Translations under genes and position numbers: made by a program | Part shown: in pieces, positions 7,850-62,204 of the stretch | Layout: each line of letters starts with the position of its first letter | Numbering within the stretch: position 1 is the first letter of the stretch | The notes under the pieces: generated by a model | Told to the model about the DNA's origin: nothing | Databases searched by the model: none | What the model saw: only the letters and a program-made list of their open reading frames with translations | NCBI GenBank assembly: GCA_963831085.1 | Contig: CAWHOT010000002.1 | Location: forward strand, 986,941 to 1,050,940 | Direction of reading: 5' to 3' | Source: an uncultured Acidobacteriaceae bacterium | GTDB taxonomy: Bacteria; Acidobacteriota; Terriglobia; Terriglobales; Acidobacteriaceae | DNA: 64,000 nucleotides

Positions 7850-7882
7850 GAGTTGAATAAGGCGCAGCGTTCCCGCTCGTCC

Positions 7883-44348: not shown

Positions 44349-44528
44349 CATTACTGTGGGAAAGCACTCACCGCCGGAGGGGGGCTCGGGGGGTGGCAAA
44401 CATAATGTTCGCTACCGCACGAAATTAATGCTATGATTCCGTGCCACTTAGACAACTTCCCTGAATTTGGGCCCGAGCCTGGAGTATGGCGAGGCAGTTG
44501 CCAAAGCACGTGTGAACGGAGACAACAT

Positions 44529-45230
44529 ATGGCCACCTCAGTCGTAGACAATGTCCAGAAACTGGCACCAGCAGACAAGACGTTTTGCGATCTTCCTCCA
44601 GCCGTGGCCGACGCCTTGGAGCAAGCGGCACTGACCACCAGCTATCCCACGGGTGCAGTTCTGTTCGCGGAGGGCCAGGCGCCCCGCGGAGTATTCATCG
44701 TCCGTCGAGGCCGGGTGAAGCTTTCCATCTGCGGCAGCGACGGCAGGACGCTGATTCTGCGTATGGTCGACTCCGGCTGCCCATTGGGAGTTGCGGCGGT
44801 AGTTTCCGGGCGGCCGTACGAAGCCACGGCCGAAACCCAGGAGCCGTCCGAAGTCAGCTTTTTACGGCACAGCGATTTGCTGCGCCTTATGCGTATTCAC
44901 GGCGAGGTTGCCCTGTGGGTGACCCAGCACATCGCCGAAGATTACGCCAGCACATGCCGGGAAATCCGTGATCTGATCCTTTCCGACTCGGCCAGCGAAA
45001 AGCTCGCTCGGCTGTTGGTGGGATGGCTCGATCAAAACACCGCGTCCAAGAACCCAAGCCAGATGAAGCTGGCCTTGACGCACGAAGAGATCGGGCAGAT
45101 GATCGGCTCTTCGCGAGAAACCGTGAGCCGGCTTTTCGCAGGCTTCAAGAAGCAGCACGTCATTCAGCAGAGCGGATCTACTCTGGTGATTCAGAACCGC
45201 GTGGCTCTGGAATCGCTGATCACGGCATAG
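44529..45230 (+). CDS. Crp/Fnr-family transcriptional regulator (no N-terminal Fe-S Cys cluster)
   Basis: cNMP-binding-like domain (LFAEGQAPRGVFIVRRGRVKLS) and a C-terminal HTH (THEEIGQMIGSSRETVSRLF). The start is set at the ATG with a GGAGA RBS. There is only one Cys in the N-terminal 30 aa. Confidence 0.85.
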   Translation: MATSVVDNVQKLAPADKTFCDLPPAVADALEQAALTTSYPTGAVLFAEGQAPRGVFIVRRGRVKLSICGSDGRTLILRMVDSGCPLGVAAVVSGRPYEATAETQEPSEVSFLRHSDLLRLMRIHGEVALWVTQHIAEDYASTCREIRDLILSDSASEKLARLLVGWLDQNTASKNPSQMKLALTHEEIGQMIGSSRETVSRLFAGFKKQHVIQQSGSTLVIQNRVALESLITA

Positions 45231-47779: not shown

Positions 47780-47845
47780 TTCAACGCCTTTCGGCAGTTC
47801 AAAAGCAAATCATGTGGAGCGACGCTCCACCAACACAAGCCACTT

Positions 47846-48736
47846 CTAGCGGTAGGCGAACAACACCGCATAGATGATCCACAACACAATGCTGAATCCG
47901 ACCGCCAGCGCTGCCCAGGCGAAGGCTCGAATCGTACGGGTGACGATTGGCGGATAAGCCTCCTCCATGTAATCCTCCAGCGTCCCGCTGGCGACCAGCG
48001 CTTCATACTCTCTCGGCTTGTCCCTCTTTAATTCTTCGAGCGGCATGCGCCCAGTGAACACCGTGATGTCCATGGGAAACTTTTCGGGGCGCAAGTGGGT
48101 ATTGAAGAAATGGACGGTAAAGATGAAGCCGGTGGCGAGCAACGCCTCGTCGCTGTGAATGATGGTGGCGACGTTGAGGAACGACCCCGGTATAAACCGG
48201 GTGAAGAACACTGGAAACCAGAGTGTGAGGCCGGTCGAACCGATCACCGCGATCCCCCAAAACACCGCGAAATAGTCGAATTTTTCCCAGTACGTCCAGC
48301 GGCCGTAGGCAGGGCGCTTGCCCAGGCCCACAAACCACTTCAGCGTGGCCACGAACTCAGCCAAATCCTGGCGGTTGGGGATCATGCTGCCCGGACCGAA
48401 CACCAGCGAGCGCCAGGAAATGTGCTCCCTTTTTTTCTGTCGGTACAAGTCCACCAGATGGGTGATGAAGACTCCGAACATGACGACGGCGGCGGTGCGG
48501 TGAATGTAGCCCGCGTTCTCGAATCCGCCGAGCAGATGAGAAAGCACCGCGGCCCATTTCGTGTAGGAGAACTTCAGGGTCAACCCGGTCAGCGCCAGGC
48601 TCATGAAGCTCACGATCATGCAGATGTGCAGAGTCCGCTGCAACCGGGAGAACCGGATGAACTGACGTTCGGGGCGGGCGAACTGCGGACGTTCCGCCGC
48701 GCGTTCCACCAAGTCTGCTGATTCGCCCTTAGGCAT
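47846..48736 (-). CDS. Membrane b-type cytochrome (FdnI/HydC-like), stand-alone
   Basis: The start ATG at 48736 is preceded by AAGGAGAA and lies 4 nt after the upstream stop codon. It aligns by eye with the C-terminus of 45659..47779 (EK..YWA..WG....S.G..LWF ... H..EALLAT..I...HF ... PMD). Confidence 0.8.
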
Positions 48737-50792
48737 CGGTGTTCTCCTTATTCTTGCTCGGGGGAGTTTCAGGCTTGGTGGCGTCTTCGGTTTCCGCGGC
48801 GCGCAACTCCTGGCGCATCTGGAAAGCTCGGGGCAGCCAGAGCAGGGTATGAACGCCACCGACCACGAATGTCACCAGGAGCAGCGTGGTCATGCCCCAG
48901 AAGGTATAGAACAGGAACGGGTACTTGCGCGGGTCGTGGTGGGTGGCGTGCGTCAGGTATCCGGCGAAGCGGCGGGTCGCGCCGGCATGGCATTTTCCGC
49001 AGGTGGCCGCGACGTTGGCCCGGCTGAGGTGAGAGCGTGGATCCGTCACCGCCAGCACGTCGTGAGCGCCATGGCAGTCATAGCACTTTGCCGCTTTCGT
49101 GTACCCCAGCTTCGAGACCTTCCCGTGATAGGTGTCAAAATAGGTCTCGGCAATCTGCTGGTGACAGCGTCCGCACGTAGTCATCACGTTCAGCCGGAAG
49201 CTGTTCTCATCGGTGCGGTGGATGGCATGAGCGGTATGGCAATCGTTGCACACTGGAAGTGACTTGCTGAACCCGCTCACTCGCTTGGCATGGATGCTGT
49301 TCTCGAACTGCTCCTCGATGCCGTGGTGGCACCTGCCGCACGTGGTCGGCACGTTGTTGGCGTTGACACTCGACGCCGGATCGGTCCGGGGAAGGATCTG
49401 GTGAGCGGTGTGGCAACTGGTGCAGGTCGCCGTCACCGTCAGGCCGTTCTTCAGTAGAGTTCCGTGAATGCTCTCCGTATAGTTGGCGATAATTTCGTGC
49501 TGCAGTCCGGTGTAGCGCACGGCAGCCTTCTGGCCCTCGCGGTGACAGCGCGCGCAAAGCACGGGAACATTGGTGGCAAAGGTCGACGATTGCGGATCCT
49601 GTTTGCCCAGGATGCCATGCGCGCCATGGCATTCCTTGCAGGTCGGGGCATTCGGATCGTTCTTGCCGTTCAGCTGTCCGTGGATGCTGGTGGCGTACAG
49701 CTTGCCAATTTCATCGTGGCAAGCGGTGCAGTCGACCCCGTGGATGATGGTCTCGCACGGGCGCACACGGGAGGCGTTGACCTCCGAGTGGCATTGGCTG
49801 CAGGCAACGTTGCGAAGTCTGCCAGGTTCCTCGCTGTGACGCGAATGGTTCACCTCGGTCATGTTGACGTACATGGATTTGCCGTCGCGCGCGCGACGCA
49901 GTTTCTCGTCGGCGTGGCAACGCATGCAGTCGGCATCGGCCATGCCCTGCGCATAGAAGACGTTCCTGATCTTATGGGGCTGATGGCAGTCCGGGCACGC
50001 GGGCAGAACGTTGGCCTGTTTTTCCCAGAGCTCTCCGCGAATTGTCTTCCGGTGGACCGATTCGATTTGCGAGTGGCACTTGGTGCAGGTGGCGGCAATG
50101 TTCCGGCGATTGATCGAGGAAGCGGGATCGGTATGCGGCAAGATCAGGTGCGGGGTGTGGCAGGTGGCGCAGTTCGGGGCCACCGACAGTCCCTTCTTCA
50201 GCAACGCCTCCCCGTGAATGCTCTCAGAGTAGTTCTCCAGAATGTTGTCCTGGGGAATAGTTCGGTTGCGCGAAACCGGAGTTCCTTCGCGATGGCACTG
50301 GCCGCAAACGAAGGGCACTCTCAACGCCGCCACGGCGGACCGGGGGTCCTTCACCGGAACGATGTCGTGGTTCCCGTGACAATTCACGCAGTGGGGCGCC
50401 AGCGCATCGCCGCGGGCAATCGCCTTCCCGTGGAGCGAGCGGGCATGTTGCTCCTGCTCGGTCGCATGGCACGTACCGCACTCGACCCGCGCCGGCGTTT
50501 CGTGGGGAAAGTCCTTCCCTGCCAGATCGGCGTGGCATCCGGTGCACCCGAAGCTGGCATGTACCGAAGTGGCAAATTTCTTTCCATCTACGTATAGCGA
50601 GACCGTTTTGCCGGCTCGCGTTGTGGTCATGGTCTTGTCGCCGTGGCACGCTAGACATTCCTCCCCCGGCTGATCGGCGGCGCATACGGGGCGTTCCAAG
50701 AACACGAGGGAGAAAACGGTGGCGACAAGCGTCGCAACGACGACTCCCAGACCAGCACACCACTTCCTTCGCGCAATTCTTATTTCAGCCAT
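48729..50792 (-). CDS. 19-heme c-type cytochrome with a C-terminal TM anchor
   Basis: N-terminal anchor/signal, 19 CxxCH motifs by hand count, repeated doubled-CxxCH modules (CxxCH..H.[IL]...DP.S.[VI]...N[IV]..TCxxCH), and a C-terminal TM (FWGMTTLLLVTFVVGGVHTLLWL). Confidence 0.85.
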   Translation of the reverse strand: MAEIRIARRKWCAGLGVVVATLVATVFSLVFLERPVCAADQPGEECLACHGDKTMTTTRAGKTVSLYVDGKKFATSVHASFGCTGCHADLAGKDFPHETPARVECGTCHATEQEQHARSLHGKAIARGDALAPHCVNCHGNHDIVPVKDPRSAVAALRVPFVCGQCHREGTPVSRNRTIPQDNILENYSESIHGEALLKKGLSVAPNCATCHTPHLILPHTDPASSINRRNIAATCTKCHSQIESVHRKTIRGELWEKQANVLPACPDCHQPHKIRNVFYAQGMADADCMRCHADEKLRRARDGKSMYVNMTEVNHSRHSEEPGRLRNVACSQCHSEVNASRVRPCETIIHGVDCTACHDEIGKLYATSIHGQLNGKNDPNAPTCKECHGAHGILGKQDPQSSTFATNVPVLCARCHREGQKAAVRYTGLQHEIIANYTESIHGTLLKNGLTVTATCTSCHTAHQILPRTDPASSVNANNVPTTCGRCHHGIEEQFENSIHAKRVSGFSKSLPVCNDCHTAHAIHRTDENSFRLNVMTTCGRCHQQIAETYFDTYHGKVSKLGYTKAAKCYDCHGAHDVLAVTDPRSHLSRANVAATCGKCHAGATRRFAGYLTHATHHDPRKYPFLFYTFWGMTTLLLVTFVVGGVHTLLWLPRAFQMRQELRAAETEDATKPETPPSKNKENTDA

Positions 50793-50811
50793 GTCAAACT
50801 CTCGACCATGC

Positions 50812-52260
50812 TTACTTCATGCCAAGATCCGTAAGTACTTTCGGGTTTGCCTCCTGAACCGCGAGCAGGTTGTGGCACGCACTGCAATCATTGGTGATGG
50901 TCTGGCCATCGGCGCTGGTGTGACTACCGTCATGGCAGCGGAAGCAACCCGGCGAATCGTTGTGTCCAAGATTATTGGGGTGAACACCCCAGGCCACACG
51001 CATGTCGGGGAAGACGTTACGCAGGTAGATATTCGCCACTTCCTGGCCGGCCTGTTCCACCACCGTGCGCCGCGTTTGATAGATCTGCGGGTAATTGGTG
51101 CGATAGAAATTGTTGAGTTCTTCCTTAATGGTGCGCTGCGCCACATCGCGGGCGGAGTAATTCGCTTTGAGAACCTCGACCGCCTTTTTCCGGATGAAGG
51201 GAAGCTCCGGGCTGATGCGCCCGTTCGCCATCTGCTTGTCCACCGCATTTTCCGGCAAGTCGAAGGCATGGGTGGGCCGGTTATGGCAGTCGACGCAATC
51301 CATCACGCGATGCTCTCCCTTGTCCATTTGCTGTTGAGTAGGCTTTGTATCAGTGGAAATGAATTCGGTGGTTTTTCCGTTTTCGTCGGTGTAATAGACG
51401 GCCGGGATCGTCTGCCGCCCGGGGTCAGTCGAAATGTAGCGGATGCGCTCGTTGTCGGCGAGGTGGCGCCCGTGGATGCCGACCGAACCCTGCCAGGCTA
51501 TCCCGCCCACTTTCAGCAGCAACACGTCCGTCTGGGGGGTATTTTTTTCGTCGTCCTTGTAGCTGGCATTCACCAGGAACTTGTCACCGGTAAAGCGCTG
51601 GGGCCAGTGACACTGCTCACAGGTCTCGCGCGCCGGCCGGAGGTACTTTACCGGCGAAGGAATGGGGCGCGAATAGGTGTGGAAGGTTACCGCGAAGACC
51701 TGCCGCAGTCCGGAAAGCTTCGAGCGCACAAACCACCCGGCCCCGGGTCCGATGTGGCAATCGACACATTCCACACGCGAGTGTGGAGAATTCTGATAGG
51801 CCGTGTACTCCGGATCCATCACGGTGTGACAGGTTCTCCCGCAGAAGGTCGTCGAATCCATGTACTGCACGCCGCGGTACGATGCGGTCCCGAAAATGAG
51901 CAGATTGAGCACAGTGGCCGCTGCCACGTACTCCAGAGTGCGGCGCACCACGGGCAGTCCCAGGTCGATGGCAGGGAAAATCGTCGGCAGTTCCCCGCTC
52001 GCGCGCAGAGTTCGCCGCCGGAGCCAGATGCCAAATGGAATCAGCAGCAGGCCGAGTACAAAAATACCCGGGAGAATCAGAAAGACCAGAAGGCCAATAT
52101 AGGGATGCGGCGGCCCCGGCAAGAAGACTTCATAGAACCAGAAGGCGATGGTGGTGAGCGCCGCGCTCGTCGTGACCACGGCACCGATAAGGGTGATAGG
52201 ATTCTGCCCCAGAAAATAGATGGGCTCCGACCACTCTCTGATGCGTTCTTGCAGAGTCAT
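50812..52260 (-). CDS. Inner-membrane multiheme cytochrome with 3 TM helices and a NapC/NirT-like quinol-dehydrogenase region (ImcH-like architecture)
   Basis: Three N-terminal TMs, then TTFCGRTCHTVMDPEYTAYQNSPHSRVECVDCH (NapC/NirT hallmark, but the first site is CxxxCH). Four further CxxCH motifs follow (CEQCH, CVDCH, CFRCH, CSACH). Confidence 0.8.
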   Translation of the reverse strand: MTLQERIREWSEPIYFLGQNPITLIGAVVTTSAALTTIAFWFYEVFLPGPPHPYIGLLVFLILPGIFVLGLLLIPFGIWLRRRTLRASGELPTIFPAIDLGLPVVRRTLEYVAAATVLNLLIFGTASYRGVQYMDSTTFCGRTCHTVMDPEYTAYQNSPHSRVECVDCHIGPGAGWFVRSKLSGLRQVFAVTFHTYSRPIPSPVKYLRPARETCEQCHWPQRFTGDKFLVNASYKDDEKNTPQTDVLLLKVGGIAWQGSVGIHGRHLADNERIRYISTDPGRQTIPAVYYTDENGKTTEFISTDTKPTQQQMDKGEHRVMDCVDCHNRPTHAFDLPENAVDKQMANGRISPELPFIRKKAVEVLKANYSARDVAQRTIKEELNNFYRTNYPQIYQTRRTVVEQAGQEVANIYLRNVFPDMRVAWGVHPNNLGHNDSPGCFRCHDGSHTSADGQTITNDCSACHNLLAVQEANPKVLTDLGMK

Positions 52261-52381: not shown

Positions 52382-52693
52382 CTATTTTTTCAACGTGCGG
52401 ATGTAGGCCACCAGTGCCTTAGCGTCCACAGCTGGATACTTGGGCATCTTGTTCTTGCCGTTGGTGATGGCATCCGCGAGCTGCGCGTCCGTCATTTTCT
52501 GCACTTCTGCGGAGGTCAAATCCTGAGCGCCCATTTTCTTCCCCATGGGCGAACCGGTTCCGTCAGCGGCATGGCAGGCGACACATTTTGCTTTATAGGT
52601 ATCTGCCGCGCCTTGCGCATGCGCCGATAGGGGAAGGGCGAGAACAATCGCCAATGCTGTTGCGATAGTAAACAGTGTGATGTTGATTCTCAT
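52382..52693 (-). CDS. Monoheme class I cytochrome c (103 aa)
   Basis: Signal peptide MRINITLFTIATALAIVLALPLSAHA, CVACH, and a distal Met (NKMPKY). The start is set at the internal ATG with a GGAG RBS. Confidence 0.85.
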   Translation of the reverse strand: MRINITLFTIATALAIVLALPLSAHAQGAADTYKAKCVACHAADGTGSPMGKKMGAQDLTSAEVQKMTDAQLADAITNGKNKMPKYPAVDAKALVAYIRTLKK

Positions 52694-52798
52694 CGTCGAG
52701 CTCCATTCGAGTTTTGGTTGGCCCAGCATTTGGAACGAAATACATCTATTAAGCCGCATCCGCAACCCACAATATTGAAGGTTTCGCGGGCGAGGTTC

Positions 52799-52814
52799 TG
52801 TGATCCCGGTCACA
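52799..52814. promoter_or_regulatory. Perfect Crp-type palindrome TGTGA-N6-TCACA inside the cytochrome cluster
   Basis: TGTGATCCCGGTCACA lies in the 323-nt gap, ~106 nt upstream of the ATG at 52693. An AATATT -10-like element lies ~30 nt downstream of the site centre (class II-like geometry). Confidence 0.55.
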
Positions 52815-53016
52815 CTTGCGTGTACCGCGATGTTTTCCGAGGGCTGGAGGACGGAATGGCTAGCGACTGGAGCCGCCCTCGGCGATTTGCAGATCGAGGG
52901 CCACACGTTCGCCGTTGATTAGCACCGATAATCGAGCTGGGTTGCCAGAATGTCCTGACCGGCCAGGATCAAACTACTGGCTGGCAACGATCAGAATAAG
53001 GCCCAACCAACCAGCC

Positions 53017-53751
53017 TTACTTCTGTGCATAAACCATTCCGGCAGCATGATATGGAGGATCGGAGATCAGGCGGATGTATGCAATCAGGGCCTCGATCTC
53101 TGTCTTGCTCAGAGTATAGCCGTAGGGGGGCATCAATGCGGACTTGTTGAGCGCGGGGCCGCCATGGCTGATGATGGCGGTCAGATCGGCATCGCTCATT
53201 TTGTTGAGGGTGTCACCTTCGGTGAACGGGTGCGGCTTGACCTCGAGATTGTCGTAATTGGAAACCCGTTCCGCCGAAGACTCCGGGTTGTGGCAGCGGG
53301 CGCAATACTTGTTGTCGAGCTGAAATCCGACCTGCTGTTGATAGCCGAGTGCGATCTCTTCGACCTTCAGTTCGACCGACTTCTGAGCTTTCGTCGAAGT
53401 GCGCGCGGTGAGCTGATATCGGCCTGCCATGCCGCCCAGAACGACGTTCGTGCTTACCTGTCCGCTGGAATCGGTCAGGCCACTCGGTGGATCAAAGCTG
53501 ACGCCCGCAGGCCCGCTGAATTCGACCAGGGCTCCGGTGACGGCTGTTCCCTGTTCGTCGTTGACCTGGACGACCAGGGGTTGAGCGAGCACCATGCCGG
53601 TTGCGCCGATCTGCTTGCCTCCACTCGACTCCACCAGTGCCGCGCCAAACGCGGTCGGCTTTAGGGCGGAGGCTGGTCCTGGATTGCGCGTGCATTCTGC
53701 GCTGATGAGAATGAGGAAGACCATTAAGAGTATCCGCCAGCGTCTGGCCAT
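53017..53751 (-). CDS. Exported protein with an Ig-like (Big_1-like) domain plus a C-terminal monoheme cytochrome c domain
   Basis: The start ATG at 53751 lies 2 nt after the upstream stop. Signal peptide MARRWRILLMVFLILISA, beta-rich Ig-like middle, and CARCH with a class I c-like C-terminus. Confidence 0.7.
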   Translation of the reverse strand: MARRWRILLMVFLILISAECTRNPGPASALKPTAFGAALVESSGGKQIGATGMVLAQPLVVQVNDEQGTAVTGALVEFSGPAGVSFDPPSGLTDSSGQVSTNVVLGGMAGRYQLTARTSTKAQKSVELKVEEIALGYQQQVGFQLDNKYCARCHNPESSAERVSNYDNLEVKPHPFTEGDTLNKMSDADLTAIISHGGPALNKSALMPPYGYTLSKTEIEALIAYIRLISDPPYHAAGMVYAQK

Positions 53752-53753: not shown

Positions 53754-55835
53754 CTATTTCTTCGCCTCCTGTTTGCTGGAGCTTTTCTGCGTCATCAGGA
53801 ATGCGGTCAGAGCGCGGGCGTCTTCGTCGTTCATGTTTCGGTTGGGCTCGATGGTGCCGGGCCGCATGGTCTGCGGTTCCTTGAGCCAGTGGTAAACCCA
53901 CGCGGCATTCAGACGCGAACCTACTTGCGTGAGGGTTGGACCGATGTAGCCTTGGTCCGCCTTGGTATCAACGATGTGGCAGGACTGGCAGGCATACTTG
54001 GAATAGAAAAGCTGTCTTCCCTGCTCGACCTCGGCAGCCGGATAGCCGCTGGCCGGTATCGAGTCGCGATCGAATGCCGGAGTCTGACAAACGGTCATGA
54101 TGTAGTCGGTGAGCTCCTTCGCGTCGTCATCAGAAAGATTGAATTTCGGCATGCGGCGGATCAGCGCCGGACGCAGCGTACCGGGATTCTTCAAGAATGC
54201 CTGCAGCCATTGCCGCTGCACCGAGCTACCTTCCCAGGTCAAATCAGGAGCCATGTCTCCTCCGCGACCGTTAATCGAGTGGCAACTGAAGCATGCGAGG
54301 TCCGCCATGAGTTGTCCGGCTTTGCCTGCGGGCTCGTAATTCGAAGCCGGTTTCGCTGGCACGGTTAATGCCATGGGCAAGTCATGTGCCCGATCTGTGA
54401 GCGCGAGCAGCGCGGTCGTCAGAGCATCGATCTGCGCGGGGGCGAGGGTGAACTGCGGCATCTTCAATGCCGATCCAAACGAGCGCGGTTGCCGGATCTT
54501 GGCGGCAATGTAGTCCGGTATCGCGTGCGTCATTCCGGGCAGGAAAATGATCTGCGTCAGCGGTTTGCTTCCGATGCGGGTCAACTCGGGCGCGAAGTTA
54601 TCCGGTTTCTTGATACCGTTGATCTCGTGGCAGGAAGCGCAGCCGTACTCGGTCACCAGAAGTTTGCCGTGCGCAATCTGCTCCGGCGTGGCGGCGTCGA
54701 GATGCACATTGGCCAGCAGATCGGAATCAGTCTTGTTTCCGAGGAAGGCAGTGAGCAGAGAAAGTTGCGGATCGTTGAAACGATAGTGCGGCATTGCTGT
54801 TCCCGGATCGTAGACACGCGGATTGTGCAACCATGCCCGCAACCATTCCGGCTTCACCTTATTGCCGACCCGGGTGAGTTCCGGACCAACATCACCGCCC
54901 ACAACATTCCCAGCAGCATTCTGCACGGAGTGGCAGGAGGCGCAGAACGACTCGCCGTACAGGCTGGCTCCAGCAGTCGGATCAGGCGGCTTCTGATCTT
55001 TGTTCTTAACCTCGCCACCCGCCGCAACCGGCGCTGTGTCTCCCACGATCGGTGTGCTGTTGGCAATCAGGAAAGCCGAAATGTCGCGCGCGTCGGGATC
55101 GCTCAGTTTGAAATTCGGCATGGTCGCGGTAACGGCGTAGGCTTGAGGATCCTTCAGCCACGCATAAATCCACTCTCGTGTGGTCTTGTCGGCGACGTGC
55201 TCAAGCGACGGCGGATCGTCCGTCGGCTTCAGCGCGCTGCCGTCGGGCAGTTTGATGGTGTGGCAGTGCACGCAACCATATCGCGCCAGCAGATTACGTC
55301 CCAAGTTCAGTTGCGGTGTGCCGGTTAGAGGAGCGCGATGGCACTGCCCGCACGACGATTGGACATACCGCGCCGGCAAGATTGGCTGCTCCCAGGCTAG
55401 CGTGCTGCTGTGGGCTTCCTCGACGGTGGTCGCAGGCCCTTGCCCGCGGTGACACATCGCGCAGCCGAACTGGTCGAGCGTGTGCGGGATTACCGGATGC
55501 CGGCGAAACGGCTGGGTGCTGACATCGGCGAGACTGGCCTCTTTCAATCCGACGTGGCAGGTGGTGCAACGATCTACGACTCCGAGTTGCGGAAGCCATA
55601 TCTGCTGGATTCCGTCGTGTTCGCGAAAGTGGCGCTGCAGGGTTACCGCGTCTCCGCGGCTTGCAATCAGCTTCAGATACTGCTTCTGGTAGTGACGCCA
55701 TTCGCTGAAGTGGTTCTTGGCCGGCGCAATGCCCAGCGAAATCAATAGCAGCAGGCTGACCACGCCAAACGCGCGCACGGGATCGCCGAACAACGTTTGC
55801 CACAGCGAAGATAAAGTGCTCTTTGACGACGGCAA
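53754..55835 (-). CDS. Membrane-anchored octaheme c-type cytochrome of bc operon 2 (N-terminal multiheme part plus class I-like c domains)
   Basis: Eight CxxCH motifs (CTTCH, CAMCH, CGQCH, CVHCH, CASCH, CASCH, CFSCH, CQSCH). The listed TTG start at 55892 overlaps the upstream gene by 56 nt. The in-frame TTG at 55835 has GGAGG 7 nt upstream and lies 1 nt after the upstream stop. Confidence 0.8.
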   Translation of the reverse strand: MPSSKSTLSSLWQTLFGDPVRAFGVVSLLLLISLGIAPAKNHFSEWRHYQKQYLKLIASRGDAVTLQRHFREHDGIQQIWLPQLGVVDRCTTCHVGLKEASLADVSTQPFRRHPVIPHTLDQFGCAMCHRGQGPATTVEEAHSSTLAWEQPILPARYVQSSCGQCHRAPLTGTPQLNLGRNLLARYGCVHCHTIKLPDGSALKPTDDPPSLEHVADKTTREWIYAWLKDPQAYAVTATMPNFKLSDPDARDISAFLIANSTPIVGDTAPVAAGGEVKNKDQKPPDPTAGASLYGESFCASCHSVQNAAGNVVGGDVGPELTRVGNKVKPEWLRAWLHNPRVYDPGTAMPHYRFNDPQLSLLTAFLGNKTDSDLLANVHLDAATPEQIAHGKLLVTEYGCASCHEINGIKKPDNFAPELTRIGSKPLTQIIFLPGMTHAIPDYIAAKIRQPRSFGSALKMPQFTLAPAQIDALTTALLALTDRAHDLPMALTVPAKPASNYEPAGKAGQLMADLACFSCHSINGRGGDMAPDLTWEGSSVQRQWLQAFLKNPGTLRPALIRRMPKFNLSDDDAKELTDYIMTVCQTPAFDRDSIPASGYPAAEVEQGRQLFYSKYACQSCHIVDTKADQGYIGPTLTQVGSRLNAAWVYHWLKEPQTMRPGTIEPNRNMNDEDARALTAFLMTQKSSSKQEAKK

Positions 55836-55836
55836 G

Positions 55837-56553
55837 TTAGCTCCTCCAGGGCAACACCCAGGACCAACCTGGGCCGCGAAAGAAAGTGCCAACCGCCGTG
55901 AGCACGACCAGTTCGAACAGGAACCAGGTCATGATCCAGAACGAGAGTGGTTTGGAGGCCAGATAACCCCGGAAAGCCGAAGGCGATTGCGGAGAACTTT
56001 GCGCCGCCAGCACCATGAACCCGACAACGATCAGGGTCGGCACCAGCGCCACATACACATCAAACCACAATAAGAACACAGAGAGAGCAGCCGCGACTAC
56101 GTAGAAAATAAGCAGGCGACGCTTCCGATCCTTCAGGAACACGCCTTCGGCCTCGACATTGATGTTGAAATAGGGAATCACAATCAGCGCGATCATCACC
56201 AGCGTTGGAACCAGCACACCCGCTACCACCGGCGGAAAGTAGTGCAACATTTCCTGCAATCCGAGGAAGTACCAGGGCGCCTTGGCGGGGTTGGGCGTGT
56301 GAGAGGGATCGGCAATGCCCTCAAGCGGTGCGTTGAACATGAGAGACACGCCCACTAGCGCGATCGTAAGCACCTCAATGGCGACAATGACGCGGAAGAG
56401 GACTTCCGGATACGTCTGCACCTGATCTTCGTCCGTAACCTTGACCTGCGCGGAGGTTCGCCGGGTGACGAAGACAACACGGGTCGGCGACTTACGGGCG
56501 TTAGAGTCCATGCCGGCGATGAAATCTTTCCGATCGGTCTTCTTATCGCTCAT
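55837..56553 (-). CDS. Cytochrome b C-terminal part (subunit IV-like) of split cyt b, bc operon 2
   Basis: The start ATG overlaps the upstream stop (ATGA). [17 protein letters not shown] corresponds to the PEWY region. Several TM helices. Confidence 0.85.
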
Positions 56554-57350
56554 TGGAGCTGCGCCTCCTGCGCGACGGCGGGCGGGGCTTTCGCCGCCGC
56601 CGTTCTTGGCTCGCTGTGGTGGGCGTAGAGGCCGCCATCTTTGCGAATGCGCCAGAAGTGTATTGCCACAAAAAGAATCGCAACCAGGGGCAGAATCATG
56701 CAGTGCAACACGTAAAAGCGCAGTAGAGCATTGGCGTTCACCATATTGCCGCCCAGCATCAGGAAGTGAACCTTGTTGCCCATCACCGGCACGGCGGAAG
56801 CTATATTCGAACCCACCGTGATCGCCCAGAAGGCCAGTTGGTCCCAGGGCAGCAGATAGCCCGTGTAGCTGAGCAGCAGCGTAAACAACAGCAGGATGAC
56901 TCCGATGACCCAATTGAACTCGCGCGGCGCCCGATACGCTCCGCGGTAAAACACCTTGAACATGTGGGCGAACACCAGGAAGACCATGGCATGCGCGGAC
57001 CAGCGGTGCAGGTTGCGCAAGAACAGGCCGGAGGACACCACGAACTGCAGATCCTTAGTGTCGGCGTAGGCCTGCGGCACCGAGGGATGGTAATAGAACA
57101 TCAGGGGAATGCCGGTAACGACCAATATAAGAAATGTCCCGAACGTCAGAGTGCCCAGATACCAGGTCGTGCTGAAGCTGAGCATTCGGGTGCGCACCTT
57201 GGTAGAGAAAAGGTGCAGGAACACGTTTTGCTGCACGGCGAGGGCGCGGCGCAGAGTGCTGGATCCGGTCCCGCTGCGGAATACGGAACGCCAAACGCGC
57301 GTGCCGCGCAACTCCTCGAAATAGGTCGCGATTGTTTTCACCACGCTCAC
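56550..57350 (-). CDS. Cytochrome b6-like N-terminal part of split cyt b, bc operon 2
   Basis: Four-helix pattern with two His pairs (..[11 protein letters not shown].. and ..[18 protein letters not shown]). Overlaps the Rieske gene by 4 nt. Confidence 0.9.
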
Positions 57351-57868
57351 ACCCTCACAAACTGCATGGGACGAATGGTGATGGATCGGTCCACCATCAA
57401 ATCGCCCTCGTCGCTGATCCAGGTCTGCAGCCAGGGCAGCGGCCTAGGCGCAGGACCTTCAATCTTTTCTCCGGGAGTTTTCCCGGGGCTCAGAACATAA
57501 AACTTGCTGCCATGGCAAGGACAAGCAATGATGCCCAACTCAGGCTTCCAAGCGGTCAGGCAGCCGAGGTGGGTACAGACAGCGCTCAGCGAAAAAAAGC
57601 CTTCTTGGGCGTGGATGAGATAGATACCTGAATTCACGTCCAGCGTCACCGAATTTAGGGCATAATTTTCCGGCTTGCCCGCGTTGACAATGGGAGAAGG
57701 CTCGTACAACACGTTTGGCGAGAGAAACTGGTACGAGAATGCGGCCGTACCGGCAGCGGCGATACTCAGCGATCCCAATCCCAGCTTCATGAAAAAGGCG
57801 CGGCGGTTGAAGTCGGTATTTGTTTCCGCTGCACCCTCCGCCGGCGTGTTTTTCTTCTCCTCGGACAT
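57347..57868 (-). CDS. Rieske [2Fe-2S] protein with Tat signal, bc operon 2
   Basis: [13 protein letters not shown] twin-arginine region; CTHLGC and CPCHGS boxes; GAGGT RBS. Confidence 0.9.
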
Positions 57869-57884
57869 TGTTTACCTCGAAAGG

Positions 57885-60023
57885 TTACCTCGGGCCTCCC
57901 GCCGTGACTGGCGATTTGGATCTGAGTGGTCCATCGATGGCTTCCACTGAAATCAATCCGGTGGGCTCGGCGGAAATCAGGTTGTAGGACTCCATGGTGA
58001 TGGTGCCGACGGGACAGCGCGCGGCGCAGAGACCGCAGCGAATACAGCGAGTCTCGTCTTTCAGCATGGCAGAACCGGTCACGATGCCGAGTTCATCGGC
58101 CGCCACTTCATTGAGTTCGACGCCAAACAATTCCTGATTTTCGTGGATTTGCTGCACGGTTTCGGGCTCGAACTGGATGCGATCCAGGGATACGAGCTGC
58201 AGGCAGTTTTCCGGACACACATCCACGCAACCGCCGCAAAGGATGCACATACTCCCGTCTTCGGGGACACCTTCGAAGACCGTGTTTACCCAGCAATGCA
58301 GGCAACGCTGGGCTTCTTCCATGGCGGACTCAGCGTCGTAGCCGACCTCAACTTCGGTCACCCCGGTGCGGCGCTCCACCGGCAGCATTGGTATGGGTGG
58401 GCGAATCAGGTCCAACAACTCCAGCGGCATGCTGTGGCGCTTCAGCACCTCGACTTCGATGATCGGTTCAGGGTGCCTCTCGCCAAGCATGAACTCATCA
58501 ATGCCGGTCGCGGCGTGCCGGCCGTGAGCCACGCTGTCGATGGACGCACCCCCGGACGCACGCCCGGCGAACGGAGTCGGACTGCCCGAGTCACTGCCAA
58601 CGTCAGCTCCGGCAGCAGCTTCACGCGCTCGGTGAACCCGCAGGAACTCATCGATGCCGACGGCAGCGCGCTTGCCGTCCGCCACGCTATCGATGATCAA
58701 ACGCGGGCCGAAAACGCAGTCCCCTCCGCCAAAGATTCCATTGGCCGAAGTCATCAGCGTTTTCGGGTTCACCGCGATCAGCCCACGAGGAGAAAGTTCC
58801 ACGCCGTCTTCGGGTTTGAGGAAGTCCAGCCTCGGCGCCTGGCCGACCGCCATGATGATGGTGTCGCACTCCAGTTGTGTTTCACTGCCCTCGTAGAACG
58901 CTGGATTGAAGCGCTTGTTCTCGTCGAAGACCCATTTCGTCTGCAGCGTTTCCAGCGCAACAACTCTGCCATCTTTGCCAATTATGCGCTTGGGGCCCAG
59001 GCCGGGATGCATAACGATGCCTTCGGTTTCGGCCTCTTCGATCTCCTCCAGCGCCGCCGGCATTTCTTCGCGTTTTTCCAGGCAGACGAGATGCACTTCC
59101 TGCGCGCCCAGGCGCAGGGCAGAGAGCGATACATCCACCATCTCTTTTGTGGCCACGGCACTTACACTCTCCAGCGAAGGCTCCAGGTCTTCTACTCCAG
59201 CAACATGCTGCCGGACGACTTCGCGCGCCGCCGAACGCGCCACGTCCATGGCCACGTTGCCACCACCGATCACAATAACTTTTTTGCCGATGGTGAACTT
59301 GTAGCCGAGATTCACGTTGAGCAAGAAATCGATGCCTTTGTAGACACCATCAAGGTCAACGCCCGGGATCGTGAGATCGCGGCTGCGATGCGCGCCCACG
59401 GCGATCAGCACGGCATCGAAGCCCTGGTAGCGCAGGTCGGAAACCATGAAGTCGCGTCCGGCTGCGTGATTGAGCTTTAGCGTGATGTCGCCGGTCGCGA
59501 GAATTTCCCGTACCTGAGCCTCGACGACGTCGCGAGGCAAGCGGTATTCGGGAATGCCGAGGTAAAGCATTCCTCCGGCGACCGGCGCAGCTTCAAAAAT
59601 GGTGACCGAGTAGCCCATGAGGGCGAGGTCGTGCGCTGCTGAAAGTCCCACCGGGCCGCCGCCGACCACGGCGACTTTGAAGGGGAGTTTGCCCTGACCC
59701 CGTCCGGCATATACATCGACAGGATGCTTGGATTCAGGTCCGTGCCGCTCCGTCAGAAAACGTTTGAGCGCGCGTATGGCGATGGGGCGATCGATATCTC
59801 CGCGGCGACAGGCGGTCTCACAGGGATGAGCACAGACCCGGCCGCAGATGCTTGCCAGCGGATTGGGATCGCGGGCAAACTTGTACGCTTCCTCAAATCG
59901 CCCTTCCGCTATGAGCGCGACGTAACGGCCCGCGTTGGTGTGGGCGGGACAAGCCATCATGCAGGGGAAGTTGGTATTCAACCAATCCCTGTCTACTTTC
60001 TTGTCTTTGAAGCGCTTCAGCAA
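57885..60023 (-). CDS. GltD/NfnB-like FAD- and NAD(P)H-dependent oxidoreductase with N-terminal Fe-S region and a C-terminal 2x[4Fe-4S] ferredoxin domain
   Basis: CPAHTNAGRY..CGRVCAHPCETACRRG, two Rossmann motifs (VAVVGGGPVGLSAA; VIVIGGGNVAMDVA), and C-terminal CILCGGCVDVCP and CIRCGLCAARCP. TTG start. Confidence 0.85.
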   Translation of the reverse strand: MLKRFKDKKVDRDWLNTNFPCMMACPAHTNAGRYVALIAEGRFEEAYKFARDPNPLASICGRVCAHPCETACRRGDIDRPIAIRALKRFLTERHGPESKHPVDVYAGRGQGKLPFKVAVVGGGPVGLSAAHDLALMGYSVTIFEAAPVAGGMLYLGIPEYRLPRDVVEAQVREILATGDITLKLNHAAGRDFMVSDLRYQGFDAVLIAVGAHRSRDLTIPGVDLDGVYKGIDFLLNVNLGYKFTIGKKVIVIGGGNVAMDVARSAAREVVRQHVAGVEDLEPSLESVSAVATKEMVDVSLSALRLGAQEVHLVCLEKREEMPAALEEIEEAETEGIVMHPGLGPKRIIGKDGRVVALETLQTKWVFDENKRFNPAFYEGSETQLECDTIIMAVGQAPRLDFLKPEDGVELSPRGLIAVNPKTLMTSANGIFGGGDCVFGPRLIIDSVADGKRAAVGIDEFLRVHRAREAAAGADVGSDSGSPTPFAGRASGGASIDSVAHGRHAATGIDEFMLGERHPEPIIEVEVLKRHSMPLELLDLIRPPIPMLPVERRTGVTEVEVGYDAESAMEEAQRCLHCWVNTVFEGVPEDGSMCILCGGCVDVCPENCLQLVSLDRIQFEPETVQQIHENQELFGVELNEVAADELGIVTGSAMLKDETRCIRCGLCAARCPVGTITMESYNLISAEPTGLISVEAIDGPLRSKSPVTAGGPR

Positions 60024-60065: not shown

Positions 60066-60101
60066 CTAAGAAAGCGGGGAGCGGACGTGGCCGCCCGCTC
60101 C
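60066..60101 (-). terminator. Terminator-like hairpin after the cupredoxin gene
   Basis: The minus strand reads GGAGCGG-GCGGCCACGT-CCGCTCC followed by CCGCTTTCTT. It separates the barrel/cupredoxin pair from the oxidoreductase-bc operon. Confidence 0.45.
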
Positions 60102-60119: not shown

Positions 60120-60701
60120 CTATTTGCTGAGACTGAAGTCCGCTTTGGTGTCGCCCGCCACCGCGACCGGCTTGGACTGGTTCTTGGCGCCTTCATGCCA
60201 GGCGGTTACGGTGTAGCCGCCGTCGGGAACGTTCTCGATCTTGTATTCGCCTGACTTATCCGTGGTGGCGAAGTATGGAGTGGGCGACACGATGACATAG
60301 CCTGACATCTCGGGATGGACATTGCACAGCAGCGGCACTGCGCCAGGATTGTCGAACTTGAAGGGACGTTTCTCGCCCTTAGGCCAGGTGCCAAGGTTGT
60401 GGGTGAGCTTTTTGTTGCCGCCGACGGAAGGCCAAAATACGTTGTGGGCGACATTGTCGCTATTGAGGAACTGCACGGTCGTGCCGACCTGCACCGCTAC
60501 GATATGGGGATCAAACATTAAGCCCTTCTGGTCGATCACGGGCTGCTGGGTGGGAGCGGGGAAGGTTTTGCCCGCAGGCGCTTCCACATAAACGACCGAC
60601 ACTCCGGTAACGCCAGAAACTTTGCCGCTGATCGTGCCCGCGCTGGCGGTCAAGCACACCACTGCTACTACGGCCATCACCATCATGAAACTGCGTGTCA
60701 T
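60120..60701 (-). CDS. Exported type-1-copper (cupredoxin) protein with a C-terminal carboxypeptidase-regulatory-like beta-sandwich
   Basis: Signal peptide. Ligand pattern is His in NVAHNVF plus CNVHPEM (C-x2-H-x2-M, as in amicyanin-type sites). C-terminal GEYKIENVPDGGYTVTAWHEG. Confidence 0.7.
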   Translation of the reverse strand: MTRSFMMVMAVVAVVCLTASAGTISGKVSGVTGVSVVYVEAPAGKTFPAPTQQPVIDQKGLMFDPHIVAVQVGTTVQFLNSDNVAHNVFWPSVGGNKKLTHNLGTWPKGEKRPFKFDNPGAVPLLCNVHPEMSGYVIVSPTPYFATTDKSGEYKIENVPDGGYTVTAWHEGAKNQSKPVAVAGDTKADFSLSK

Positions 60702-60764: not shown

Positions 60765-62204
60765 TCAGAACAGGAATTTCGCATCCAGATAAATAGTATT
60801 GTTGGCGCTCGCGTTGCGACCCGAGCCATCGTAGTCGGTTGCCGCGCCATTGAAGCGCGTATATCCGGTGTATTGGAAGGCGAGCTGCAGATTCTGCCAC
60901 GGCCAATACGAGACGTTTGCGATATATCCGGCGCTTCTCGGGTCGCCATTGGGGTTGCCGCCGCCCACAGGACACGGCCCATACAGCGCGCAATCGGCCG
61001 TGCCCTGGGTAATGAACCAACCGAATGTGCCCGTATAGCGATTGCCGAAATGGTATTCGGCGTTGGCCATAAAAGTGTTCAGATGGTGCCCGCACACTGA
61101 TGCCGCTGGCGGACTCTGATTGCAGCTGGCTGCCAACTGGGAATTTTCGCGGATATACGTGCCTCGCAGCGAAAGAATGTCCTTCCTGAATAATGTCCGA
61201 TCATACTGAGTGTCGAAGGCCCAATCGGTGTAAGCATCATAGATGTCAGTTGTCCCGCCATTGGGGATCGCGAAAGGGCTGTTCTTCACGTGCATTCCAT
61301 AGCTGCCGATCTCAAACTGTGTCGTCCCGGTCGATTCCTGCCAAGCGACGCGCCAATATGGCGCAACCCCGACGATGTTGTGTGGAAAACCACTTCCCGG
61401 ATTCGGCTGAGGACTATCCACGTGTTCCGAGCGATAAATCGCTGCATCCAGGTACAGATGATTGTCCCACATCGCGAAGCCACCGAATCCTGCGACGTCC
61501 TGCGACAAAGGACCATTAATGATGGGAGCCGCGGCGGGAGTGGGTGCAAAATCGCTGGCGATCCAGGGGAAACCCCATGCCGGCGTACTGTTCCAAAGAT
61601 CCTCTACCGTTGGATTGTTGTTGAGGTCCAAGCCGTAAACCAGTTCCTTGCCGCTCACCTTCGTCTTATTCGCGTAGCGGATATCTGTATTATCGCTGTG
61701 GAAATGGTTGGTTTGTGTGTCGTAAGTCACTTGAAGAAAGCTGCCGACGTTGCTTGTCCATGCGCCAGCCAGGAACAGCGATATATCTTGAGGAAATTCA
61801 AAACTGCCATTCTGGGTGGTCGGCACCGGTGAATTGGTGTTGGTAAATGAAGCCTCAAGCATTACGGAAAGGGGCAGCGAAGCGAGAAGATTAAGCGCTG
61901 CATGCGTTTTGCTTCCCTCCGATGTCACGGTTTTTGTCTGATCCCCTCTGTCAACATAGCCGAGCAGCTTGAACCTTCGTCCGGCAGGGTTGAGTTCCGG
62001 CGGCGCGTAGTGGCAGCCACTGCAAGCCAAGCCCGTTTGCCGCGCATAGCTTGGAACCGCCAACGCGCCGGGCGGATTCAATGCGGCAAGAAACAACAAA
62101 ACTATGATAGGAGCTGTCGCAAGCAAAGAGATCGCCATTTTTTTTATCTGGAATCTCATTATTATCCCCGAAAACAGCAGGGACACCCGACGCAGCGTAT
62201 CCAT
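60765..62204 (-). CDS. Putative outer-membrane beta-barrel protein with an N-terminal CxxCH motif
   Basis: The ATG at 62204 has AAGGAGG 7 nt upstream (alternative ATG at 62159). Hydrophobic signal, YARQTGLACSGCH, then ~420 aa of alternating beta-like segments ending in the aromatic LDAKFLF. Confidence 0.65.
   Translation of the reverse strand: MDTLRRVSLLFSGIIMRFQIKKMAISLLATAPIIVLLFLAALNPPGALAVPSYARQTGLACSGCHYAPPELNPAGRRFKLLGYVDRGDQTKTVTSEGSKTHAALNLLASLPLSVMLEASFTNTNSPVPTTQNGSFEFPQDISLFLAGAWTSNVGSFLQVTYDTQTNHFHSDNTDIRYANKTKVSGKELVYGLDLNNNPTVEDLWNSTPAWGFPWIASDFAPTPAAAPIINGPLSQDVAGFGGFAMWDNHLYLDAAIYRSEHVDSPQPNPGSGFPHNIVGVAPYWRVAWQESTGTTQFEIGSYGMHVKNSPFAIPNGGTTDIYDAYTDWAFDTQYDRTLFRKDILSLRGTYIRENSQLAASCNQSPPAASVCGHHLNTFMANAEYHFGNRYTGTFGWFITQGTADCALYGPCPVGGGNPNGDPRSAGYIANVSYWPWQNLQLAFQYTGYTRFNGAATDYDGSGRNASANNTIYLDAKFLF

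Follow-up and report, generated by a model that had tools for sequence, protein, structure and literature searches.

Complexes in which a Rieske protein and a cytochrome b (cyt b) are combined with an NAD(P) oxidoreductase are described for the anammox bacterium Kuenenia (Kuste4569-4574 and Kustd1480-1485). They consist of a Rieske protein, a b6-like cyt b, an enlarged subunit IV (SUIV, ~240 aa), a GltD-like flavoprotein that ends in a 2x[4Fe-4S] domain and, in place of cytochrome f or c1, a multihaem cytochrome c. According to a proposal by Kartal et al. (via Hauser 2025, PMC12954380), these complexes reduce NAD(P)+ by electron bifurcation at the quinol oxidation (Qo) site. Hauser 2025 (PMC12954380) predicts an additional haem b located between the cyt b monomers of the dimer, with His43 of Kuste4571 as its ligand, and cites a complexome study in which all subunits of the Kuste4569-4574 complex co-migrate; Dibrova 2017 (PMC5600118) reports on de Almeida 2016 that complexes with cyt b and a large oxidoreductase subunit are highly expressed. 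Whether Rieske/cyt b complexes can send their low-potential electron to NAD(P)+ rather than return it to quinone has been a question since 2011-2013, one so far bound up with anammox bacteria and the difficulty of cultivating them. Here, an operon of this kind is described from an uncultured Acidobacteriaceae bacterium (GenBank assembly GCA_963831085.1, contig CAWHOT010000002.1). It lies in a stretch of 64,000 nucleotides (positions 986,941 to 1,050,940 of the forward strand), the whole of which is called the window and provides the numbering used below. Sequence comparison shows that the operon is truly homologous to the Rieske/cyt b complexes of Kuenenia that contain an NAD(P) oxidoreductase. 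That its flavoprotein associates with the membrane complex and is wired to it appears very probable, and we give an even chance to the further reading that the complex performs a quinol-driven bifurcation to NAD+ with the flavoprotein as electron outlet.

The genes are situated on the minus strand throughout and follow each other in the order flavoprotein, Rieske protein, b6-like cyt b, SUIV-like protein, octaheme cytochrome c and further cytochrome c:

57885-60023, minus strand: flavoprotein, 712 aa (Pfam Fer4_20, Pyr_redox_2 and two Fer4)
57347-57868, minus strand: Rieske 2Fe-2S protein, 173 aa (Pfam Rieske), with the twin-arginine (Tat) motif NRRAFF
56550-57350, minus strand: b6-like, four-helix cytochrome b, 266 aa (Pfam Cytochrome_B, 1e-44)
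55837-56553, minus strand: SUIV-like membrane protein, 238 aa, matching the C-terminus of cyt b and subunit IV of b6f
53754-55835, minus strand: membrane-anchored octaheme cytochrome c, 693 aa, with eight CxxCH motifs (Pfam/NCBIfam)
53017-53751, minus strand: secreted protein of a Big_1 (Ig-like) domain and a monohaem cytochrome c, 244 aa (Pfam)
52382-52906, minus strand: monohaem class I cytochrome c, 174 aa (Pfam), 110 nt downstream of the Big_1-cytochrome c gene

Exactly 16 nt separate the stop codon of the flavoprotein gene from the ATG of the Rieske gene, which is preceded by GAGG 6 nt upstream. The Rieske and cyt b genes overlap by 4 nt (GTGA), as do the cyt b and SUIV genes (ATGA, with AGGAGG upstream); the gap is 1 nt between the SUIV and octaheme genes and 2 nt between the octaheme and Big_1-cytochrome c genes. 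These junctions indicate translational coupling. A scan of the sequence inside the operon found no promoter- or terminator-like signals exceeding chance. The single match to a sigma-70-like promoter, located within the Rieske gene, is below chance expectation and gives no evidence of an internal promoter, and a search for sigma-54 promoters (TGGCAC-N5-TTGCW, up to 2 mismatches) gave 32 matches compared to 35 expected, none of them upstream of the operon. This layout had in large part been recognized by a first-pass annotation of the DNA: its succession of a flavoprotein gene 16 nt upstream of the Rieske gene, overlapping b6-like and SUIV-like genes and an octaheme gene agrees with coordinates, motifs and Pfam matches, and its description of the 712-aa protein (two Rossmann folds, N-terminal Fe-S cysteines, C-terminal 2x[4Fe-4S] domain) is supported by Pfam and motifs. 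That description holds overall, with the correction of two start codons: the SUIV-like gene starts at the ATG at 56553 instead of the start of the open reading frame (ORF) at 56913, according to start codon analysis, and the octaheme gene likely at a TTG at 55835 with GGAGGA before it (full ORF 53754-55892). The extent assigned to the cluster (53754-60023) left out three conserved neighbours, namely the cupredoxin and Cyc2-like genes on the upstream side and another cytochrome c gene on the downstream side.

For comparison with Kuenenia, the window proteins were searched by BLASTP against locus L081 of a Kuenenia sp. (Kuste4569-4573 type), in which all four core proteins have full-length homologues. 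The identity amounts to 51% for cyt b, to 42% for SUIV over its first 117 residues (238 vs 240 aa in full, with a 14-residue Qo segment identical), to 35% for the Rieske protein over its full length, and to 33% for the flavoprotein over its full length (residues 10-678), with the C-terminal ferredoxin domain, RCLxC and both CxxCxxCxxxCP motifs included. The octaheme protein resembles the hexahaem protein of Kuenenia only in the N-terminal ~150 aa. The best matches of the Rieske protein in the PDB are 9rk4 Kuste4569 (E 1.6e-19) and 9rk3 Kustd1480 (6e-15), ahead of every Rieske protein of b6f or bc1. All constituents of the Kuenenia complexes named above thus recur in the window, the multihaem cytochrome c having eight CxxCH motifs and an N-terminal transmembrane (TM) anchor there, and the proposed ligand of the extra haem and the high-potential type of Rieske protein are likewise common to both.

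Despite this general similarity, there are several differences between the two systems: The flavoprotein gene is the first gene in the window, whereas the order in L081 is Rieske, flavoprotein, cyt b, SUIV-like, hexahaem c and HAO-like. The Cys for attachment of haem cn (CxGG), modelled for both Kuenenia complexes, is not present in the window cyt b, which has Tyr64 instead. The window flavoprotein possesses a Leu-Glu motif and an insert of ~40 aa, whereas that of Kuenenia shows Tyr-Arg-Arg. The octaheme protein contains four class I domains and is unrelated to the multihaem protein of Kuenenia beyond the N-terminus. The HAO-like partner of Kuenenia is lacking, and conserved cupredoxin and Cyc2-like genes adjoin instead. 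Finally, the host is an organotrophic soil acidobacterium, whereas Kuenenia is an anammox autotroph. Arg511 of the Kuenenia flavoprotein, said to face the extra haem, was considered as a conserved feature and rejected, as the window protein and most of its relatives have Gly at this site.

Concerning more distant systems, the b6f complex of cyanobacteria and chloroplasts shares with the window the split into cyt b6 and subunit IV, it provides the best match of the window cyt b among solved structures (E 1e-44), and as a further similarity a blue copper protein is the likely acceptor. The window differs from it in the lack of a cytochrome f homologue (Pfam) and of the haem cn Cys, in an APWY instead of a PEWY motif, in an SUIV of probably about five helices, and in the dedicated flavoprotein with four clusters. 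In chloroplasts, ferredoxin:NADP+ reductase is reportedly a bound subunit of b6f (said to go back to Zhang et al. in 2001). Among the NCBIfam models, cyt b, SUIV and the N-terminal half of the octaheme protein come nearest to ExtP, ExtQ and ExtS of the Cbc6/ExtOPQS system of Geobacter sulfurreducens, all of them with scores under the curated cut-offs (255.6 < 290, 57.7 < 150 and 86.9 < 100, respectively). As in the window, the ext cluster combines a Rieske/cyt b core and multihaem cytochromes near an outer-membrane porin gene, whereas no flavoprotein is listed for it. The Rieske/cyt b genes of Caldithrix (PMC5317091) were rejected as a relative, since they belong to a nap cluster without a flavoprotein.

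The distribution of the flavoprotein was followed by a profile-free search of 1.8 billion representative proteins, which was used for a family alignment (A1) and revealed many proteins of 580-700 aa with the same architecture and 40-59% identity; near-identical proteins are annotated to metagenome-assembled genomes (MAGs) of Terriglobales and Ca. Sulfotelmatobacter. A scan with A1 over one genome per GTDB species gave 338 relatives, the best 80 loci of which were kept for all counts out of 80 in this text; all ORFs of these loci were translated and searched with the window proteins. Rieske and/or cyt b genes are situated directly downstream of the flavoprotein gene in 76 of the 80 loci, and Rieske, cyt b and multihaem c genes are found together in 65. 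The four exceptions comprise a contig that ends at the gene, another with a flank of 1.1 kb, and two stand-alone genes (L032 and L075). L032 represents a second copy in the same MAG as L025, and the paralogue of L075 (Blastocatellia, 7426-12364) adjoins cbb3-oxidase maturation-like genes (CcoG-like, P-type ATPase), as judged by N-termini only.

According to record titles, at least ten phylum-level lineages are represented. The acidobacterial loci stem from Terriglobia, Bryobacterales, Blastocatellia and Thermoanaerobaculia, and further ones from Ignavibacteriales, Bacteroidota/Cytophagia, Eisenbacteria, Zixibacteria, Binatota, Chloroflexota, Verrucomicrobiota, Calditrichaceae, Deltaproteobacteria and Anaeromyxobacter sp. 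PSR-1 (L080). Three gene orders exist: flavoprotein-Rieske-cyt b; flavoprotein-cyt b-SUIV-Rieske, as found in L057 (Ardenticatenales) and L076 (Acidobacteriota); and Rieske-flavoprotein-cyt b in Kuenenia. A split cyt b is encoded by 56 loci and a fused one by 16. In comparative genomics, linkage that is kept across distance and rearrangement is a classical sign of interacting products, and as the flavoprotein/Rieske/cyt b linkage is kept across distant lineages and in rearranged order, an interaction of the products is indicated. A homologue of the Big_1-cytochrome c is located 3' of the octaheme gene in most type-A loci; homologues of the 174-aa cytochrome c (52382-52906), which possibly is a member of the operon, occur at the corresponding position in few loci only and are weakly conserved. 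In L049, L052 and L070 (Ignavibacteriales, Cytophagia and an unclassified bacterium; ~1300-5600 in each), the cluster is preceded by genes for a large protein and for a partner of ~460 aa. From the N-termini, this pair, apparently also present in L056 (Binatota), is read as a putative sensor kinase with a response regulator of sigma-54 type; the window has no comparable pair next to its cluster.

The first-pass annotation had suspected in the operon the same logic as in Kuenenia, and the homology of the core proteins to the Kuste4569-4573-type locus agrees with this. The synteny search that it suggested was carried out, and a linkage unique to this genome or due to a recent insertion is rejected, since 76 of 80 relatives elsewhere keep it. 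It had also expected an extension of the idea to another phylum. This extension is real; it is not new, because Dibrova 2017 (PMC5600118, section 9) already notes that short cyt b genes of subfamily G are found 'in many other cases' in the vicinity of large Fe-S oxidoreductases that bind NAD(P), and Kao & Hunte 2014 (PMC4122944) describe a multi-phylum clade of APWY cyt b as well as Ca. Solibacter usitatus with APWY, PDWY and PEWY cyt b genes.

The Rieske protein exhibits a membrane anchor and the cluster boxes CTHLGC and CPCHGSKF, the latter of the S-F type. Kao & Hunte 2014 (PMC4122944) class the S-F signature as 'Mid+' (~260 mV); for the Kuenenia pair, +303 and +335 mV are given by Hauser 2025 (PMC12954380), the higher value measured for the S-F Rieske protein Kustd1480. 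In cyt b, four His ligands for haems bL and bH are present, of which H115 and H129 and two His of helix D align with the ligands of b6. At the position of the haem cn Cys, the window sequence reads WYLGT (Tyr64) and that of Kuenenia WCMGG; with the Cys of CxGG replaced by Tyr64, attachment of haem cn is impossible. This Cys is absent from all flavoprotein-linked cyt b of the 80-locus set shown in the column analysis (about 72 loci). His46, equivalent to His43 of Kuste4571, is invariant in the ~72 flavoprotein-linked cyt b, where it is situated within a conserved N-terminal segment N(V/L)xLHxxxxK; the Arg of HFWRIRK, which corresponds to Arg247 of Kuste4571, is kept in flavoprotein-linked cyt b as well. 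The Qo motif of SUIV is APWY, within PAKAPWYF, and by motif its pairing with an S-F Rieske protein (CPCHGSKF) fits the APWY clade of Kao & Hunte 2014. By simple hydropathy, SUIV has four clear segments, one of them long enough for two helices, compared to five in Kuenenia. The octaheme protein consists of an N-terminal TM helix, a four-haem part similar to ExtS/c7, and four class I monohaem domains (SoxX/cbb3-like).

A second Rieske/cyt b operon of conventional appearance exists in the window (23027-25831, minus strand), with a Rieske protein, a fused PEWY cyt b of 361 aa and a nonahaem cytochrome c, and without a flavoprotein. Two differing bc-type complexes are therefore encoded within 35 kb, a pattern as in Ca. 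Solibacter usitatus with its multiple cyt b genes.

The flavoprotein begins with a domain for 2x[4Fe-4S] (Fer4_20, E 3e-23), followed by Pyr_redox_2 (3e-30) and, at the C-terminus, by two Fer4 domains. GxGxxG motifs mark the Rossmann folds for FAD and NAD(P)H, the linker carries RCLHC, and two CxxCxxCxxxCP motifs are found at aa 592-604 and 659-671; in alignment A1 the Cys ligands are invariant in both Fe-S regions. An extra Cys, C606 (CPENC), is kept in 79 of 81 sequences and replaced by Ala in Kuenenia. Hydropathy analysis detected neither a TM helix or other hydrophobic segment nor a signal peptide, so that the protein is cytoplasmic. Concerning its nucleotide, the dinucleotide fold of all 80 flavoproteins shows the pattern h-h-x-Leu-Glu-x3-E-M-P-A after strand beta-2, whereas Kuenenia has Val-Tyr-Arg-Arg; GltD and NfnB, too, possess Tyr-Arg-Arg at the position of Leu-Glu. 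As a rule for Rossmann folds, an acidic residue after strand beta-2 favours NAD(H) over NADP(H), and the Leu-Glu motif suggests a specificity for NAD(H) rather than NADP(H). An insert of 24-53 aa is likewise present in the dinucleotide domain of all 80 flavoproteins and is not found in Kuenenia; in the window protein, motif and insert fall within aa 268-323 (about 59055-59222). The window gene furthermore contains an internal repeat:

58487-58695, minus strand: in-frame tandem duplication of 153 nt within the flavoprotein gene, copies 58487-58542 and 58640-58695 (79% identical)

This duplication doubles the helix IDSVADGKRAAVGIDEF, located after the FAD domain. It is missing from 661-aa homologues and from all A1 members and distant relatives, and judged by length alone, close relatives of 703-734 aa probably share the duplicated segment.

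The closest PDB matches of the flavoprotein are NfnA/NfnB, the GltD domain of StnC type, GltD and dihydropyrimidine dehydrogenase (DPD). Like GltD, NfnB/SudA and DPD, it combines an N-terminal domain for two [4Fe-4S] clusters with an adrenodoxin-reductase-like FAD/NAD(P)H domain, and like DPD it has an 8Fe-ferredoxin-like C-terminal domain, resulting in a wire of four clusters; following Vanoni's review, it can be described as a GltD-like module to which an 8Fe-ferredoxin-like domain is added, equal to the wire of DPD minus the catalytic domain. The GltD-like enzymes possess a catalytic partner domain (GltB, NfnA, DHODH), whereas the conserved partner of the window flavoprotein is the membrane Rieske/cyt b complex; the NAD-type Leu-Glu motif and the dinucleotide-domain insert constitute further differences. 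Relatives are publicly named 'FAD-dependent oxidoreductase', 'glutamate synthase beta subunit-like' or 'formate dehydrogenase beta subunit'. An identity as true GltD or formate dehydrogenase beta subunit is rejected, because a Pfam scan of the operon neighbours found neither GltB nor a catalytic gene of formate dehydrogenase, and because the models for these families all remain under cut-off: NCBIfam models of the GltS family score too low (TIGR01316, 308.9 < 471.75), and the top model, the generic 'NAD(P)-binding protein' PRK12771, is under cut-off as well.

Upstream of the flavoprotein gene, the following elements are situated:

60078-60101, minus strand: GC-rich hairpin followed by CUUUCUU, between the cupredoxin stop codon and the flavoprotein start
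60120-60701, minus strand: secreted cupredoxin, 193 aa (Pfam Copper-bind 7e-7, CarboxypepD_reg 1e-8)
60765-62204, minus strand: putative Cyc2-family fused monohaem cytochrome-porin, 479 aa, with signal peptide and C-terminal Phe, predicted for the outer membrane

The hairpin folds with -30.2 kcal/mol (z -4.6), and none of 200 shuffled sequences is equally stable. It may act as a terminator-like or as an mRNA-stabilising element, and its position between the cupredoxin and flavoprotein genes fits the flavoprotein gene as the first gene of the transcription unit. A comparable hairpin (<= -15 kcal/mol), with differing stem sequences, exists in 35 of 45 measurable related loci and thus in most Terriglobia; in several other lineages the gap is <= 22 nt. 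The cupredoxin exhibits an amicyanin/plastocyanin-like type 1 Cu site, CNVHPEM (CxxHxxM), and a C-terminal CarboxypepD_reg-like domain; its best NCBIfam model is amicyanin, and a homologue is found directly upstream of the flavoprotein gene in 56 of the 80 loci.

The start of the porin-like gene is fixed by a 100%-identical protein (P0391) and is preceded by the Shine-Dalgarno sequence AAGGAGG. The protein has no match in Pfam or NCBIfam and is 'hypothetical' in all public sources. Its N-terminus, AVPSYARQTGLACSGCHYAPPEL (AVPSYARQT-GLA-CSGCH-YAP-PEL, with one CxxCH), fits, except for Tyr instead of Phe, the motif AxPxFAR[Q/K][T/Y]...CxxCH...PxL with a length of at least 365 aa that Keffer 2021 (PMC8406198) gives for the Cyc2 family, to which Cyt572 of Leptospirillum belongs, too. 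An AF2 model of low confidence (mean pLDDT 43.7, pTM 0.50), used for strand count and fold class only, shows 16 strands, and the top 50 Foldseek matches of this model are essentially all outer-membrane beta-barrels, including OprO/OprP and PorB (E to 4e-9, TM 0.4-0.56). By its motif, the gene would thus be a member of the Cyc2 family, with iron oxidation as a presumed function; such a function is verified for few members, and that of cluster-3-like and divergent homologues is uncertain (PMC8406198). A Cyc2-motif ORF (at least 330 aa after the motif) adjoins the cluster in 44 of the 80 loci, including those of Ignavibacteriales, Cytophagia and an unclassified bacterium, and two subtypes can be distinguished (AVPSYARQTG... 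and AIPAFSRQYG...). Both the Cyc2-like and the cupredoxin genes are lacking in loci of the fused-cyt-b type, in those with the order flavoprotein-cyt b-SUIV-Rieske and in Kuenenia, so that they are an accessory of one subtype and not part of the core.

In a literature search, no paper was found that describes a linkage of Cyc2 or cupredoxin genes to a flavoprotein-Rieske/cyt b operon, and by this measure the conserved link is previously unreported. A preprint on extracellular electron transfer in peat (10.64898/2026.05.27.727921) deals with porin-multihaem clusters; Rieske, cytochrome b, cupredoxin and FAD are not mentioned in it. A comparable system is that of rus/petI in Acidithiobacillus ferrooxidans (Cyc2, rusticyanin, cytochromes c4 and bc1), where Cyc2, a cupredoxin and a Rieske/cyt b complex are associated functionally and genetically (PMC10654088), and both Qo motifs have Pro at position 2. 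There are again differences: The cyt b of Acidithiobacillus belongs to the clade of PPWY gamma-proteobacterial bc1 with cytochrome c1, and NAD+ is reduced there by a separate complex I running in reverse, without a flavoprotein subunit, whereas the window operon has such a subunit. Iron oxidation is demonstrated in Acidithiobacillus, whereas for the window we only infer it.

If the window complex carries out quinol-driven bifurcation, menaquinol (menaquinone-8, MK-8, is the quinone used by Terriglobia) would be oxidized at the Qo site. One electron would be transferred to the high-potential Rieske protein and on to the octaheme cytochrome c and to the periplasmic Big_1-cytochrome c and cupredoxin, the latter of which would likely interact with the Cyc2-type cytochrome-porin of the outer membrane encoded next to it. 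The remaining electron would cross the membrane via haems bL and bH. Since haem cn cannot attach, this second electron is probably passed on and not used to reduce quinone at the quinone reduction (Qi) site: it would possibly reach an extra haem held by His46 of both cyt b monomers, then the C-terminal and the N-terminal pair of [4Fe-4S] clusters in the flavoprotein, which would dock on the N side of the cyt b dimer, and finally FAD and NAD+. The net reaction between quinol (QH2) and quinone (Q), 2 QH2 + NAD(P)+ + 2 high-potential acceptor <-> 2 Q + NAD(P)H + 2 reduced acceptor, would be reversible in principle, and we give a modest edge to the forward direction from quinol to NAD+. Gene packing, homology to Kuenenia, the co-migration and high expression reported for the Kuenenia complexes, the synteny in 76 of 80 loci, the invariance of His46, the four clusters of the flavoprotein and the S-F Rieske protein speak for this reading; a high Rieske potential is discussed by Hauser et al. 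(PMC12954380) as an energetic prerequisite. The gene set, cofactor motifs, topology signals, homology and synteny are seen in the sequences, whereas the physical attachment, the extra haem, the preference for NAD over NADP and the forward direction are deduced.

Several points weigh against quinol-driven bifurcation. Taking menaquinone at -74 mV, NAD at -320 mV and the Rieske protein near +300 mV, a rough standard-potential estimate indicates that lifting an electron to NAD+ is at best marginal against the full membrane potential, especially with an acidic periplasm. The assignment to NAD rather than NADP depends on a single motif, and the flavoproteins of L032 and L075 are genuine stand-alone paralogues. 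In this genome, a strong hairpin parts the cupredoxin and Cyc2-like genes from the flavoprotein operon, and they are thus linked to it by conserved neighbourhood only. The PEWY cyt b of the second operon in the window also has a His in the MAFFT-aligned column of His46, in a different sequence context, and His46 may not be specific to flavoprotein-bearing complexes. The formation of NAD(P)H is only a proposal even in Kuenenia, and APWY-type complexes are proposed to run in reverse (Kao & Hunte, PMC4122944).

Such a reverse operation is the first alternative to be considered, and we regard it as possible, though rather doubtful. Electrons of Fe(II) would pass via Cyc2, cupredoxin, cytochromes c and the Rieske protein to menaquinone at the Qo site, while NAD(P)H supplies the second electron through the flavoprotein and the b haems, helped by the membrane potential. 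The presence of Cyc2 in 44 and of cupredoxin in 56 of the 80 loci suits this confurcation, which parallels the 'uphill' Cyc2-rusticyanin-bc1 branch of Acidithiobacillus (PMC10654088). By our own estimate, moreover, the ~320 mV that separate menaquinone from a c-type carrier are too much for the proton-motive force alone, whereas NADH together with the membrane potential could overcome them. However, NAD(P)H would be spent on loading quinone with electrons of Fe(II), with no obvious net gain for an organotroph, and loci of the fused-cyt-b type, flavoprotein-cyt b-SUIV-Rieske loci and Kuenenia keep the flavoprotein without Cyc2 or cupredoxin. The function of divergent and cluster-3-like Cyc2 homologues is uncertain, too (PMC8406198).

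As a second alternative, the flavoprotein could act as an NAD(P)H dehydrogenase head on cyt b, reducing quinone at an N-side site via haem bH, followed by an ordinary Q cycle, such that the whole would constitute an NAD(P)H:cytochrome c or cupredoxin oxidoreductase. This direction is thermodynamically downhill, GltD-like modules normally pass electrons of NAD(P)H to a partner via low-potential clusters, and Dibrova (PMC5600118) proposed a 'membrane-anchored dehydrogenase' as the ancestral architecture. Nevertheless, we consider it improbable: the haem cn Cys is lost and the b6f-type Qi architecture altered, the high-potential type of Rieske protein and APWY are left unexplained, and in the Kuenenia homologues there is no clear functional N-side quinone (QN) site (Kartal et al. 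via Hauser 2025, PMC12954380). As a third alternative, the flavoprotein could work on its own in soluble form, for example as a reductase of NAD(P)H:ferredoxin type or one similar to glutamate synthase, and share only its location or regulation with a multihaem bc complex of the ordinary kind. This would account for its public names, the lack of a membrane anchor and the stand-alone paralogues, yet is very improbable given the absence of a GltB or formate dehydrogenase catalytic gene nearby, the adjacency in 76 of 80 loci across distant phyla and three gene orders and inside the Kuenenia operon itself, the ribosome-binding site in the 16-nt junction to the Rieske gene, and the co-migration of all Kuste4569-4574 subunits (complexome study via PMC12954380).

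In Terriglobia of soil and peat and, sporadically, in Ignavibacteriales, Bacteroidota, Eisenbacteria and Zixibacteria, Cyc2 and cupredoxin might form a respiratory supermodule in which they are connected to a Rieske/cyt b complex engaged in bifurcation or confurcation between menaquinone and NAD(H), an idea that we put forward tentatively and hold to be unlikely at present. If true, it would constitute a direct link, independent of complex I, of extracellular Fe(II)/Fe(III) or another high-potential couple to the NAD(H) pool. The Cyc2-like/cupredoxin neighbourhood suggests an involvement in the cycling of iron, or in extracellular redox cycling of another kind, in Acidobacteriota, which are abundant in soil and peat; if this applies, the modelling of iron and carbon turnover in acidic soils would be affected, and at present the genes in question are annotated only as hypothetical or generic. 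The conservation of the same four-subunit core and flavoprotein across many phyla, with Anaeromyxobacter sp. PSR-1 as a cultured carrier, widens the experimental choice, and His46, the loss of haem cn and the Leu-Glu dinucleotide motif offer themselves as invariant features to target.

Further genes of electron transfer are found in the neighbourhood of the operon. The region 45659-52260 (minus strand), situated further downstream and dense in periplasmic and inner-membrane electron-transfer genes, contains genes for an NrfH/NapC-like cytochrome of 482 aa, a multihaem cytochrome of 687 aa, a cytochrome b561/FdnI-like protein and a multihaem-cytochrome b fusion of 706 aa; a possible resemblance to the architecture of Geobacter CbcL is seen in this run. 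Just upstream of this run, a regulator of the Crp family and a PAS histidine kinase are encoded (42226-45230). At 32329-34550 (minus strand), an MttB-family gene (trimethylamine methyltransferase-like) adjoins a gene for a B12-binding corrinoid protein, a pair that is unrelated to the operon and unexpected in an acidobacterium.

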